Origin: an uncultured Candidatus Saccharibacteria bacterium
Lineage (GTDB): Bacteria > Patescibacteriota > Saccharimonadia > Saccharimonadales > UBA4665
Direction: 5' to 3'
Length of the DNA: 64,000 nt
NCBI GenBank assembly: GCA_964387505.1
Contig: CAYLWF010000021.1
Span: forward strand, 12 to 64,011
The notes under the pieces were generated by a model. The model had not been told where the DNA came from, searched no databases, and saw only the letters and a list, made by a program, of their open reading frames with translations. The position numbers and the translations under genes are program-made. Below, in pieces: positions 8,699 through 12,757 of the stretch. Numbering within the stretch: position 1 is the first letter of the stretch; each line of letters starts with the position of its first letter.

Positions 8699-8794
8699 GT
8701 CGCTACTCCCTCAGGTGCTTATATATTCCTTACGTTTATTGTACACAATACGCACAGTAAACCAATAATATTCCTCCGTTGTATTCTTACGGAC

Positions 8795-8826
8795 TTTTTA
8801 GATTGTCCGGCCGGACAATCTAAAAA
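8795..8826. promoter_or_regulatory. 32-bp perfect palindrome in the divergent promoter region (candidate operator)
   Basis: TTTTTAGATTGTCCGGCCGGACAATCTAAAAA lies between the starts of the two ferric-reductase genes. Its core is repeated at 11884..11907. Confidence 0.55.
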
Positions 8827-8883
8827 GTAGTTTCCTTACCGTAGTGCGTGTTGCTCAGAAATTTTTCAGCCAGGCGGAGCACA

Positions 8884-10188
8884 ATGCTGAGCATGAAAGA
8901 ACATGTAAAACGAAGGGTGCTTGCCTGGTTGATTGTCGTATCTCTGTCTCCTATACCCTTCATGGTCAAGTCGCCAGAGTGGAGTATCGCGCACTCACTC
9001 TGGTTGTATAGTTCGGCTGTGGCGGGCTATACGGGCATTGTCTTGTTGTTATGGATGTATATATTAGGCACAAAGTCGGTGATGGGGCTGTATTTTCGCG
9101 ACTTAGCGCCAGTGCTGAGCATACACAAGTGGCTGGGCAAATACGGCACGCTGCTCATTTTTGTGCATCCGCTGGCAGTGGCTATTTCTTATGGTGTTGA
9201 AATAATCAACTATGTTATCGAGCCAAATGTTGGACTCAGTTTTGAACGAAGTGTCACCTGGGGGCGGTTTGCGCTGTACGCACTGGGACTTGTGTGGCTG
9301 ACATCGGCGCTTGTACGGGGGCGCATTGCGTTTCGGCCATGGAAATATATCCACTACCTTTCATATATTGCCCTGCCCTTGGCGCTTGTGCACATACCAA
9401 GCATCGGTACCTCGTACCGTTCGCTTGACCTGCCACGTGTGTATTTTATGAGTGTGTTATTTTTGCTAGCGCTCTTTAGCGTGCTGCGTCTTAGACACCT
9501 GTTTTCACTTGGACGCGCTCGGTTTACCGTGGTGTGTCATACTGAAATTTCACCTGGGGTGTGGCTGATTGCGCTCAAACCTGGAGGTAGAACAGTACAT
9601 GTGCGCCACGGCCAATACGTCTACTTGCAATGGTCGCTGCTGGGTGAGGAGCATCCGTTTACCCTCTTGCGGCACGATGAACAGACTGGCGAGCTAACTA
9701 TTGCGTACAAAGTACTCGGGGCTTGGACAAAAAAACTCTCAGCGCTGGAGGATGGTTCGACGGTGTATGTCGATGGCCCGTATGGGTCGTTCATGGAAGA
9801 AGCTACTGAAGCCAGCGAGCCGACGGTGTTTATAGCCGCGGGCATAGGTATTACGCCCTTTGTTGAACCTATTTTGCGCAGTGCCGCAGGGCATAACTGG
9901 CTGTTTTATGCGAACCGTACGACCGACTCGGCCGTCTTATCTTGTCAGCTGAAAACCAAGCTCGGCAACCATTATGTTTCTATTCTGAGTCGTGTCGACA
10001 CTTCGTCCTCTCTGTGTGACGAGCGCGGCCACATATGCAGCGAGATGCTTGCGAAATACCTGCCTGAGCCAAGCCGCTACCGCTACTATATCTGCGGTTC
10101 AGAAGCCTTCATGCAAACCGCCACCGCTTCCCTTGCCGCGCTCAAGGTTCCCGCTGCCCACATCCACACCGAAGCCTTCAGTTGGTAG
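8884..10188 (+). CDS. Second ferric-reductase/MsrQ-like TM plus FNR-like oxidoreductase
   Basis: The track ORF starts at GTG 8848. ATG 8884 (MLSMKEHV) follows GGCGGAG and is the more likely start. The TM domain has HKWLGKYG. The C-terminal half has HPFTLL, AAGIGITPF and YICGS. Confidence 0.75.
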   Translation: MLSMKEHVKRRVLAWLIVVSLSPIPFMVKSPEWSIAHSLWLYSSAVAGYTGIVLLLWMYILGTKSVMGLYFRDLAPVLSIHKWLGKYGTLLIFVHPLAVAISYGVEIINYVIEPNVGLSFERSVTWGRFALYALGLVWLTSALVRGRIAFRPWKYIHYLSYIALPLALVHIPSIGTSYRSLDLPRVYFMSVLFLLALFSVLRLRHLFSLGRARFTVVCHTEISPGVWLIALKPGGRTVHVRHGQYVYLQWSLLGEEHPFTLLRHDEQTGELTIAYKVLGAWTKKLSALEDGSTVYVDGPYGSFMEEATEASEPTVFIAAGIGITPFVEPILRSAAGHNWLFYANRTTDSAVLSCQLKTKLGNHYVSILSRVDTSSSLCDERGHICSEMLAKYLPEPSRYRYYICGSEAFMQTATASLAALKVPAAHIHTEAFSW

Positions 10189-10377
10189 GCTTGTAGCAGC
10201 TTCTGTGCCTATCCGTTGTCTGGTAGGGCTTTTGTCGTGGATTTTCGTTCATCTTTACGTGTAACTTTTTCTGCGGCTGGAATGTCGGACAAATGTTTAT
10301 GGCTCCGTCGTAGCTTGTTTTGGTAAAAGCCAGCGTGGTCGCCGCACTATTTTCGAAGTGCCAGTGATAACGGTAGA

Positions 10378-10989
10378 TTATTCATGGCACTGCTTTGTTG
10401 TCAGATTTTCACAAATAGCTTTTACGTAGAGCCGGTCTGCTACGTCGTGTCCTACGCCTGGTATTACGATCAGTTTGTTTTGCGCTAGTGTTTCATGCGC
10501 TAACTCTGCCTGAACTCGCATGATTGGAAATTTCTGAAACTCCTTTTCACCATAAAAGAGCAAGGTGGGACAGTCTATGTCTGCTGCGAGACCGCGAAAT
10601 GAAAGCTTCCGAAATTCATTTGTCCGCCGCAACCCATGATAACGAATCCACGATTTCTTCATGTATGGTGACGAATAATTCTCTGCAAAATACGGTGACA
10701 ATGAGAAGAGCCAGAGCTGCGCCGGGCAATGTTTGGCCGCTGCCATACACGCCGTAATGGCGCCAAACGAAAATCCTGCCAAAATTGTCATGTTTGGGTC
10801 ATGTCTAGCGTATACTTGCATTAGTTGATTTTGCCATTTCTGTGGCGTGGTGCGACTCCATGTTATTGGTACGAATTCGACATTGTAGCTTTTCGATTCA
10901 ATTGTGTTTAGTACTGATCTATAGTCTCTTGAGTTGATGTCTTCACCGCTGCCAGGTACAAAAAGAACAGTGTATTTTATATTTTGCAT
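10378..10989 (-). CDS. Alpha/beta hydrolase family protein
   Basis: 203 aa. It has a GxSxG nucleophile elbow (AGFSFGA) and a C-terminal GVGHD His motif. Confidence 0.6.
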   Translation of the reverse strand: MQNIKYTVLFVPGSGEDINSRDYRSVLNTIESKSYNVEFVPITWSRTTPQKWQNQLMQVYARHDPNMTILAGFSFGAITACMAAAKHCPAQLWLFSLSPYFAENYSSPYMKKSWIRYHGLRRTNEFRKLSFRGLAADIDCPTLLFYGEKEFQKFPIMRVQAELAHETLAQNKLIVIPGVGHDVADRLYVKAICENLTTKQCHE

Positions 10990-11110
10990 ATATACTCCTG
11001 GTGAGGGCTTTCGGGGTAGTTTACGGTGTCGAAAAGCACGAAGCTCTCGACACGTATACGGTAAAAGCGGTGCGGACGGTCAAGGTGTGCCATAAACTCT
11101 TTGACTTGCT

Positions 11111-11458
11111 TCAGGCTAAACACGCGGCCGACATAGTGTTTTGTAGCTTTGGGGCAATATCAGCGGGTTTTGTGAGAAGCTCGGCGGTACCCTCTAGCTG
11201 TAAACCGCGGGGTTTGTCGGCCGGCGTTTGCGGCAGACAGATCGCAGCGGCTACGTGCGGATTTTTCATGACTTCCTCTGAATGTCGCCTCGTTACTGAC
11301 GAAAACCAGTAAATATTAAGGTCTTTGTCGGCTGCAAACCAGACATTGCACGTCCAGGGTCGTCCGTCCCCTCCTACGGTTGCTAAGTGCATCATTTTAG
11401 CTTTCTCCAGGTAGTCAGTAATGAGCTTTTCTAGCCGTTTTTCCTCTGTTACTTGCAC
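11111..11458 (-). CDS. Pyridoxamine 5'-phosphate oxidase-like FMN-binding split-barrel protein
   Basis: 115 aa. The motif MHLATVGGDGRPWTCNVWFAADKDLNIYWFSSVTRRHSEEV is typical of the PNPOx-like family. Confidence 0.6.
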   Translation of the reverse strand: MQVTEEKRLEKLITDYLEKAKMMHLATVGGDGRPWTCNVWFAADKDLNIYWFSSVTRRHSEEVMKNPHVAAAICLPQTPADKPRGLQLEGTAELLTKPADIAPKLQNTMSAACLA

Positions 11459-11495
11459 TGCTTATAGCCCTTCTGTACTTGTTGTACAATCAAAA

Positions 11496-11840
11496 TCATA
11501 GTTTCACTCTTACGAATATAAACTCATTTTCTTGAGTGGTGGGGTTCGAGATTTTGTGGCGCACATTCGCCGGAAAGACGAAGATGTCGCCTGGCTCGTA
11601 TGGGTATTCGCCCTCTTCGTCGTGAACGAACCCTGTGCCTTTGATGCAGACCATTATTTCCTCTACGCCTGGGTGGTCGTGCCAATCATACATGCCACCA
11701 GCCGGCATAAAACCATGCGTCATCATCTCGAACGAGCTACTTTTTAGGTGGTCAGGAGAAGCATAGACTTTTCGTTTACCGCTCCCGCCATGCGCGTCTT
11801 CGAGCTGGATAGTATGTTTACTTCTCTTTATCACTTTCAT
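11496..11840 (-). CDS. Cupin domain protein
   Basis: 114 aa. Cupin motifs are WHDHPGVEEIMVCIKGTG ... GDIFVFPANVRHKISN. Confidence 0.65.
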   Translation of the reverse strand: MKVIKRSKHTIQLEDAHGGSGKRKVYASPDHLKSSSFEMMTHGFMPAGGMYDWHDHPGVEEIMVCIKGTGFVHDEEGEYPYEPGDIFVFPANVRHKISNPTTQENEFIFVRVKL

Positions 11841-11883
11841 ACGCCCATCCTATACCTATAACCGCAGGCACGCAATGTCAAAA

Positions 11884-11907
11884 TAGATTGTCCGGCCGGA
11901 CAATCTA
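11884..11907. promoter_or_regulatory. Second copy of the TAGATTGTCCGGCCGGACAATCTA palindrome
   Basis: This 24-bp perfect palindrome lies between the apbE stop (11921) and the cupin start (11840). It shares a 27-nt identical core with 8795..8826. Confidence 0.5.
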
Positions 11908-11920
11908 AAATAGACGTTTG

Positions 11921-12757
11921 CTAGGGTGAGAGTTGGTCGTGGCGGAGGAGGATAGTTTTGAGGCTGTACGCGTCGGTTAGTTTTGGTTCGAGATCGGGTG
12001 CTATGAGGAGGATGGTGGCGCAGGTGTCGGCGAGGAGTGCGGTTTCGGCTCGCACGTAGGTGCTGACGATGTCTGACTGGCTAGGTTTGCCAGTGCGCGG
12101 GTCAATGATGTGGTGGTGCGTTTTGCTTCCCTGTTTCCAACTTCGTTTCACGGTTGAGCTGACTGCAAGCGCGCCGCGCTGAATTTTTGTGCTGCCAATG
12201 CTTTTTGTCTGGTCGTACGGGTGTTCGAGTGCGAACTCTAGCGGTTCTGGCGCGTTCACGAATATATCGCCGCCGCCGTTTATGACATAGTAACTCACCC
12301 CTTTGCCTTCCAGCAGTTTGCCAAGTATGTCTATGAGCCAGCCTTTGCCGAACCCGCCAAAGTCGAGGCTTATTTCACTGGGGATGCATATTTCTTCAGG
12401 GGTGAGTTTTACGTCATTCCAAAAATCATGCGAGATTTTTCCCTGCGAGCTTGCCCTGCCATAGCCGAGCTCTTGTAGTTTTCCGCCAACCGAAATATTG
12501 AAGACTCCGTCACTGGCGCGGCACATATCCCTGGCATACTCAAGCATGGTGAGCATGTCAGTTGGCGGGTTTGAGAGGCGCTTGTGTTGGTTGAGCTGAC
12601 CCAGGAGTGAGCTGTCCGAAAAGCGAGTGTATGTTTGCTCAAAATCTTGGACGTAGTTTCGGATTCTTTCTTGCAGTTCGGTACTGAGCGCCTCTTCAAG
12701 TGACTCAATCCACCAGTGTGTTCCGAGGGCGTCAAATTCGAAGATTTGTTTTTTCAT
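11921..12757 (-). CDS. apbE: FAD:protein FMN transferase (ApbE family)
   Basis: 278 aa. It has the ApbE signature SLDFGGFGKGWLID and the overall ApbE length and pattern. Confidence 0.8.
   Translation of the reverse strand: MKKQIFEFDALGTHWWIESLEEALSTELQERIRNYVQDFEQTYTRFSDSSLLGQLNQHKRLSNPPTDMLTMLEYARDMCRASDGVFNISVGGKLQELGYGRASSQGKISHDFWNDVKLTPEEICIPSEISLDFGGFGKGWLIDILGKLLEGKGVSYYVINGGGDIFVNAPEPLEFALEHPYDQTKSIGSTKIQRGALAVSSTVKRSWKQGSKTHHHIIDPRTGKPSQSDIVSTYVRAETALLADTCATILLIAPDLEPKLTDAYSLKTILLRHDQLSP

Follow-up and report, generated by a model that had tools for sequence, protein, structure and literature searches.

Saccharibacteria and other Patescibacteria have tiny genomes in which few regulators are recognisable and almost no regulons have been mapped. 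PaaX is the phenylacetyl-CoA-responsive repressor of E. coli and Pseudomonas. It is a winged helix-turn-helix protein with a dimerisation motif that binds inverted repeats, and it acts as repressor of its own promoter, from which it excludes RNA polymerase (PMC9493321). Here we present a long palindrome that occurs twice in a stretch of 64,000 nucleotides (nt) from an uncultured Candidatus Saccharibacteria bacterium (assembly GCA_964387505.1, contig CAYLWF010000021.1, positions 12 to 64,011; the window) and that brackets, outside the window but in the same genome, the gene for a protein of 193 amino acids (aa) which we call mini-PaaX. We propose, on comparative sequence evidence and with a probability of roughly 65 %, that the palindrome is the operator of this protein, a self-regulating repressor acting at about seven loci. 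A literature search found no printed description of such a gene-and-palindrome system, no paper among those searched that pairs PaaX with Cas2, and none among the matches listed that pairs PaaX with Saccharibacteria, Patescibacteria or the Candidate Phyla Radiation (CPR).

The 24-nt core of the palindrome, TAGATTGTCCGGCCGGACAATCTA, has two exact matches in the window, while 100 dinucleotide-preserving shuffles of the sequence lead us to expect none by chance. An earlier note on this DNA, made from its letters alone, had pointed out both copies. It gave their common stretch as 27 nt and the first copy as a perfect palindrome of 32 bp (8795-8826); the palindrome is indeed perfect but larger, at 36 bp, and the common stretch is 28 nt, the core plus AAAA. 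The second copy is the perfect 24-bp palindrome that was described. Pfam also confirms the neighbours named in that note, namely divergent ferric-reductase genes at copy 1, and ApbE on one side with cupin and PNPOx-like genes on the other at copy 2. The label 'FMN-binding' for the 179-aa gene upstream of ApbE has to be dropped, as this gene has no Pfam match.

The genome (G000) is a 1.07-Mb assembly of 36 contigs with 49 % GC, of which the window is contig C21. The core occurs in it seven times, six times exactly and once with a single G-to-T change, and all seven fall between genes, even though coding sequence takes up about 91 % of the genome. Flanking bases lengthen the dyad to as much as 34-36 bp. 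Besides the two window loci, one copy lies between dnaJ and a 116-aa open reading frame (ORF) followed by three ATP-grasp ligase genes, another between an alpha/beta hydrolase gene and a guanylate-kinase-like gene (245 aa) with a HAD hydrolase gene, and a third where a 158-aa gene faces a MacB-type ABC exporter. The last two copies bracket the regulator gene, which is followed by a PIF1/HRDC helicase gene. None of the seven sites adjoins a paa gene. The neighbours are functionally mixed and the regulon is not specifically redox. The flavin/heme redox regulon of the earlier note is thus given up, as the helicase, the guanylate-kinase-like gene, the MacB-type exporter, the ATP-grasp cluster and the regulator itself also carry sites. 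The genome-wide scan proposed in the same note yields these seven copies (two in the window), none inside genes and with counterparts at orthologous promoters in sister species, and not the scattered repeats that it had named as the alternative.

The position of the two bracketing copies is tight: the upstream one ends 3 nt before the ATG of the regulator gene, and the downstream one begins with its TAG stop codon and precedes the helicase gene. The sole Pfam match of the protein is PaaX_M (PF20803, the Cas2-like middle domain; E 6.6e-21, residues 102-177). The PaaX N-terminal model of Pfam has no match in it, and the phenylacetyl-CoA-binding domain PaaX_C is absent by Pfam, the protein ending at residue 193. 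We built an AlphaFold2 model on 76 sequences (predicted local distance difference test 87.7). Among known structures it comes closest to E. coli PaaX (8a39), with 162 residues aligned at Z 9.9 over positions 1-186 of the model. Its N-terminal part (residues 1-96) resembles the DNA-bound winged-helix repressors DtxR, MntR, IdeR and CggR (Z 8-9.7), and residues 105-193 match Cas2 structures (Z about 9). The model thus predicts a winged-helix DNA-binding domain, with helices at 39-46 and 50-66 and a wing at 70-80, and the winged helix and the Cas2-like domain account for the entire model. The relation to PaaX emerges by fold comparison only, a sequence search of the PDB returning no match at E up to 1. 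A homodimer prediction scored 0.36 against a mark of 0.42, which gives no verdict either way. The Cas2 signature, including its conserved Asp, is retained. The protein belongs to a family of 2955 clusters at 50 % identity (E<=1e-3), mostly of about 190 aa, whose members pipelines label either 'PaaX' or 'Cas2'.

The upstream copy is embedded in a promoter whose layout is the same in 11 species: TTGnnn, set two bases ahead of the core, is separated by a 17-nt spacer from TACAAT, and the ATG comes 6-8 nt later. The TACAAT −10 box occupies core positions 16-21, so that the palindrome covers both spacer and −10 box, and a consensus promoter scan also recovers the TTGnnn-17-TACAAT promoter. The first 12 residues of the regulator are invariant across orthologues, from which the ATG is taken as the real start; the public gene call P0002 (183 aa) begins 10 codons too late (L003:7618-7650). 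With the true start 6-8 nt past the −10 box, the mRNA is probably leaderless or nearly so, and the start indeed lacks a Shine-Dalgarno sequence. The half-site nearest the ATG always has T at core position 16, because the −10 box lies there. A TTG at the −35 position is seen in 13 of 57 orientations with T at position 16 and in none of the 81 with G. The anatomy of this promoter implies that the regulator, as read from sequence, would repress its own leaderless transcript.

We compared 28 genomes of the genus, which are kin, so that the counts below overstate independence. In seven of them (G000, G002, G004, G007, G011, G016, G018) the orthologue has at least 77 % identity and the palindrome is of the type found here (motif A; 2-12 copies). 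Five others (G003, G015, G021, G023, G042) have an orthologue of about 70 % identity and a second variant, motif B (TAAACCGTACGGCCGTACGGTTTA; 6-11 copies), which is confined to these five within the genus. Two more (G014, G017; about 58 % identity) carry A-like half-sites around a different 4-nt centre, with at least one copy each. The orthologue is lacking in 14 genomes, and 13 of these lack the motif too. Thus all 12 genomes with motif data and an orthologue carry the matching palindrome variant, A or B, and presence of the motif tracks the orthologue in 25 of the 26 genomes with data. The gene is bracketed likewise in every orthologue.

Targets keep their site across species and across the change from motif A to motif B, which bears out the conservation that the earlier note had suggested looking for in relatives. 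A site stands next to the PIF1 helicase gene in 10 genomes, the kinase-like gene in nine, ApbE in seven, NOX-A (always 100-126 nt from the start), NOX-B and a DsbA-like gene in four each, and the cupin gene in three. In other species ApbE is preceded or bracketed by a site, the latter in G002 and G007. The orthologues of NOX-B in G007, G015 and G042 adjoin a site, and those of the cupin gene in G007 and G016 have one 8-68 nt upstream. The position orthologous to copy 1 keeps a site, in the local motif variant, in G007, G023, G042 and G015, and an alignment of the NOX intergenic region shows just two conserved blocks, one of them the palindrome.

The structure of the sites themselves bears on how they are read. 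We collected 99 sites from 15 genomes; a loose IUPAC pattern gave a few false sites inside genes, which were removed by requiring TA..GT/AC..TA. The 12-nt half-site consensus is TA[AG]A[TC][TC]GT[AC]CGG. Symmetric sites number 54 of 99, against 47.3 expected from random pairing of the half-sites of each genome. The other 45 are asymmetric with uncompensated mismatches, including an uncompensated C.T mismatch at pair 9/16 in 20 sites, and in motif B many sites combine different permitted half-site variants. The two halves of a site thus vary almost independently of one another, as predicted for a dimer that reads duplex DNA and not for selection on base pairing, and a duplex-bound dimer is accordingly favoured over a hairpin.

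Site positions, promoter anatomy, gene co-occurrence, target conservation and the predicted fold are established. Beyond them we infer binding, dimerisation, the sign of regulation at targets other than the regulator gene and the signal sensed. Mini-PaaX would have a winged helix at its N-terminus, then a PaaX_M domain of Cas2 fold for dimerisation, and no ligand-binding PaaX_C; as a dimer it would read two 12-nt half-sites in double-stranded DNA. In front of its own gene the operator would fill the spacer and −10 box of a sigma-70-type promoter, and bound protein would exclude RNA polymerase from the start of a leaderless mRNA. A second operator would overlap the stop codon of the regulator and precede the helicase gene. 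Five further putative operators in G000 lie upstream of the starts of the two NOX-like reductase genes, the cupin/PNPOx operon by apbE, the guanylate-kinase-like and HAD hydrolase genes, the MacB-type exporter gene facing the 158-aa gene, and the 116-aa ORF with its three ATP-grasp ligase genes. The dimeric-repressor operator with a small regulon, as put forward in the earlier note, is the best fit to the comparative evidence and has gained a candidate regulator gene between two copies, although neither window copy overlaps a recognisable core promoter.

Several observations weigh against this proposal. The regulator is without any recognisable sensor or ligand domain. Six of the seven G000 copies are identical over 24-28 nt, a uniformity that exceeds most operator sets and fits copying as well as selection. 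Neither window copy overlaps a clear core promoter: at copy 1 one was sought and not found, the only conserved TACAAT block lying about 50 nt from the core on the NOX-A side, and at copy 2 a perfect TTGACA hexamer (minus strand, 11881-11876) lies on the cupin side, 2 nt away from the core, but is not accompanied by a convincing −10 box. The effect at these two copies may be repression, activation or a roadblock. Co-occurrence across kin is confounded by shared descent. Finally, one genome, G024, has 12 near-perfect sites and no orthologue of the regulator.

In G024 the usual locus holds a single site between the upstream 74-aa gene and PIF1 (L025:2900-3200; G024:C15, about 389.7 kb). The right flank of this lone site matches the flank after the second bracketing site of G000 and G007, and its left flank has the −35 TTG. 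The matching flanks indicate that the regulator gene was cleanly deleted between its two palindromes, so that the promoter of the lost gene is now directed at PIF1. A single PaaX_M gene, a distant one, is retained. Recent loss of the regulator is the simplest account of why intact sites persist; either that, or the sites have a function independent of mini-PaaX. A concerted change of the G024 motif after loss of the regulator was considered and rejected, as position 9/16 (A/C, T/G) is variable in all species.

The strongest competitor to a mini-PaaX operator, though one that we hold unlikely, is a selfish partnership like that of repetitive extragenic palindromic (REP) sequences with their REP-associated tyrosine transposases (RAYT), in which the palindrome is kept up or spread by the PaaX/Cas2-fold protein itself and any regulation is secondary. 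REP/RAYT systems are typified by a gene that has a copy of its own dispersed palindrome on either side, and this arrangement recurs in the genome. All five PaaX_M paralogues of G000 have a distinct motif of their own both upstream and downstream. When 991 genes are ordered by the longest string common to their 120 nt upstream and 120 nt downstream, these paralogues rank 3, 6, 8, 12 and 50. The four beyond mini-PaaX each have a different long palindromic motif, several of which share a TGT(A/C)C element near the dyad, and three of the motifs have extra copies (C29:36664, C35:5568, C4:34669). Of three distant family members taken from other metagenomes, two have the same gene-between-motifs layout, and this replication within the family also speaks for the operator proposal. 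The same metric also picks out four Y1-transposase (RAYT-like) genes with REP hairpins, each flanked by its own REP-like hairpin family with members elsewhere in G000; these look like genuine REP/RAYT systems in a 1-Mb Saccharibacteria genome.

A partnership of this kind would likewise suit the identity of six of the seven G000 copies, the range of 2 to 12 sites between species, the apparent removal of the G024 gene by recombination between its two bracketing copies, and the retained Cas2 signature with its Asp. Mini-PaaX, however, has no transposase or recombinase domain and its best structural match is a repressor. Its copies are few, and as single palindromes they recur at orthologous positions, beside the same genes, in as many as 10 species. 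Sites form part of a conserved promoter, no G000 copy lies inside a gene, and sites are scarcer than expected in convergent regions (four of 63 classified sites against about 11). A related and still doubtful idea joins the two views: mini-PaaX genes and their palindromes might be a self-propagating partnership built on a Cas2-fold DNA-binding protein, in which the protein binds its own palindrome, new copies are seeded at promoters, the regulon grows by operator copying, and bracketing makes the gene excisable, as in G024. If so, each paralogue would be an independent lineage of protein and site, and nature would have provided, in a family of about 3000 clusters at 50 % identity, a library of repressor/operator pairs that are orthogonal to each other.

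An operator of mini-PaaX would act as duplex DNA; the palindrome could instead work as a hairpin in RNA or single-stranded DNA, that is as a terminator, an RNA-stability element or a structure in a 5′ untranslated region. Predicted stems are strong, at −22.2, −17.3 and −11.9 kcal/mol, with z-scores of −5.4 and −6.1 for the first two. Four of the seven G000 copies lie just past a co-directional stop codon, and many copies in G007 and G016 have AAAA-core-TTTT flanks like bidirectional terminators. Most G000 copies, by contrast, have a T-run before and an A-run after on both strands, which is the wrong polarity for an intrinsic terminator, and only one of the four copies behind a co-directional gene is followed by a U tract. 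That one is copy 2, where the −17.3 kcal/mol hairpin on the apbE strand is followed by UUUUGACAUU (UUUU); a secondary terminator role on the apbE side, raised in the earlier note, is reasonable and plausible there. Among the classified sites 13 lie in divergent promoter regions, and the copy upstream of the regulator, placed between the −35 box and the ATG, would not be transcribed from that promoter. Symmetry barely exceeds random pairing of half-sites, with 45 of 99 sites asymmetric, and an Rfam scan of the whole window found no family at gathering score. As a general account, a hairpin is decidedly improbable.

Slighter still are the chances that the palindrome is the operator of a different factor, with the PaaX-like gene and the helicase as mere members of its regulon. 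The 12 intact sites of G024 would be expected on this account, and shared descent by itself could make motif and gene vary together. Against it, a single foreign factor cannot explain five PaaX_M paralogues each with a different flanking motif, the motif follows the orthologue in all but one of the 26 genomes, and no other DNA-binding gene recurs by the sites. A recombination site of lox or dif type was rejected, as no recombinase is nearby and synteny is stable.

Some further features of the sites and their surroundings are recorded here, with coordinates in Table 1. Pairs of sites exactly 96 bp apart, start to start, occur at five loci in three species (L020:2992/3088, L021:3017/3113, L023:2928/3024, L044:3097/3193, L083:2489/2585). 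L020 and L021 have one duplicated spacer in common, L023 and L044 each have a spacer of their own, and one pair is kept between G023 and G024; such pairs may serve cooperative binding or looping. The 116-aa ORF, which has no Pfam family, starts 15 nt after its palindrome copy and has three ATP-grasp ligase genes behind it, two RimK-like and one of LAL type, which may form a peptide-ligase cluster under the same site. Upstream of the regulator stands a gene that resembles KwaB of the Kiwa defence system, and an NYN-domain gene follows downstream of the helicase, so that the neighbourhood may be one of defence or DNA maintenance. An HD-domain (YfbR-like) gene has the longest identical upstream/downstream string of the 991 genes, 42 nt, unrelated to the palindrome described here. 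The sequencing runs that match the window stretch and the regulator locus are wastewater or activated-sludge DNA metagenomes, with no RNA run listed.

Table 1. Coordinates of the palindromes, the genes beside them and other genes discussed. Plain numbers are window positions; L, G and C are our handles for loci, genomes and contigs.
Feature	Position	Strand	Remarks
Palindrome copy 1	8793..8828	.	36-bp perfect palindrome; 24-nt core 8799-8822; between divergent NOX-like genes
Palindrome copy 2	11884..11907	.	24-bp perfect palindrome, all core; 13 nt past apbE stop, 43 nt before cupin start
NOX-like ferric reductase A, 466 aa	7298..8698	-	Candidate target; Pfam Ferric_reduct, FAD_binding_8, NAD_binding_1; site 100 nt upstream of start
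NOX-like ferric reductase B	8848..10188	+	Candidate target (Pfam); longest ORF 446 aa; true start may be the ATG at 8885
PNPOx-like flavin-binding gene	11111..11458	-	Pfam PNPOx_N; downstream of cupin gene, co-directional
Cupin gene	11496..11840	-	Candidate target; Pfam Cupin_2; first gene downstream of copy 2
ApbE flavin transferase gene	11921..12757	-	Pfam ApbE; ends 13 nt from copy 2
Regulator gene (mini-PaaX), 193 aa	L003:7618-8199 = G000:C26:71617-72198		Outside the window; bracketed by two palindrome copies
KwaB-like gene	L003:6277-7284		Upstream of regulator
NYN-domain gene	L003:11051-11746		Downstream of PIF1/HRDC helicase gene
116-aa ORF and ATP-grasp ligase genes	L001:5604-9182 (G000:C4:30603-34181)		Possible peptide-ligase cluster
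PaaX_M paralogue	L060 = G000:C26:45300-46600		Own long palindromic motif
PaaX_M paralogue	L061 = G000:C25:72200-73600		Own long palindromic motif
PaaX_M paralogue	L062 = G000:C4:17300-18600		Own long palindromic motif
PaaX_M paralogue	L063 = G000:C26:56600-57900		Own long palindromic motif
Y1_Tnp gene	L056:507-1127	-	IS200-like, RAYT-type; the four Y1_Tnp genes are 205-223 aa; contig C4
Y1_Tnp gene	L057:557-1180	-	Contig C9
Y1_Tnp gene	L058:415-1086	-	Contig C6
Y1_Tnp gene	L059:401-1018	+	Contig C4
HD-domain (YfbR-like) gene	L002:5500-6350 (G000:C5:5622-6224)		42-nt upstream/downstream string

For a group of organisms with so little mapped regulation, the proposal offers a candidate circuit that can be read from sequence, with a regulator, a leaderless autoregulated promoter, a half-site consensus and about seven target loci. 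It also corrects the annotation of a large family that public pipelines often label Cas2. If each paralogue reads its own long palindrome, the family would supply orthogonal repressor/operator pairs, and with them a natural data set on how proteins recognise DNA.

Compared with known systems, the palindrome resembles intrinsic terminators in that a hairpin with a GC-rich centre is possible and a U tract follows one of the window copies on the strand of apbE, but it differs from them in the A-runs after most G000 copies and in the many sites between divergent starts or inside a promoter. With DtxR, MntR and IdeR the regulator shares the DNA-binding domain, model residues 1-96 superposing at a root-mean-square deviation of about 2-2.5 A, and palindromic operators bound as dimers, which is known for them and proposed here. 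This likeness is structural only, no sequence relationship having been detected in searches; mini-PaaX has no metal-binding or SH3-like domain, and its dimerisation would use the Cas2 fold. REP/RAYT systems (REPINs) likewise have a single-copy gene flanked by its own dispersed palindrome and a separate repeat for each paralogue, and genuine sets coexist in G000. Mini-PaaX, however, is not a Y1 HUH transposase, and its sites number 2-12 as against tens to hundreds, keep to conserved promoter-proximal positions and are perfect loopless dyads whose half-sites assort independently. PaaX of E. coli and Pseudomonas (8a39, 3l09) has the same order of a winged helix and a Cas2-like dimerisation domain. 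An inverted-repeat operator and autorepression by exclusion of RNA polymerase are documented for PaaX and proposed here, the latter from the promoter anatomy. Mini-PaaX differs in its 193 aa without PaaX_C, in having no match to the Pfam PaaX N-terminal model and no paa genes nearby, and in a proposed operator that is a contiguous palindrome of 24-36 bp, where that of PaaX is TGATTC-N27-GAATCA. It differs further in a gene bracketed by two putative operators, a predicted leaderless mRNA and several paralogues that each have a motif of their own.

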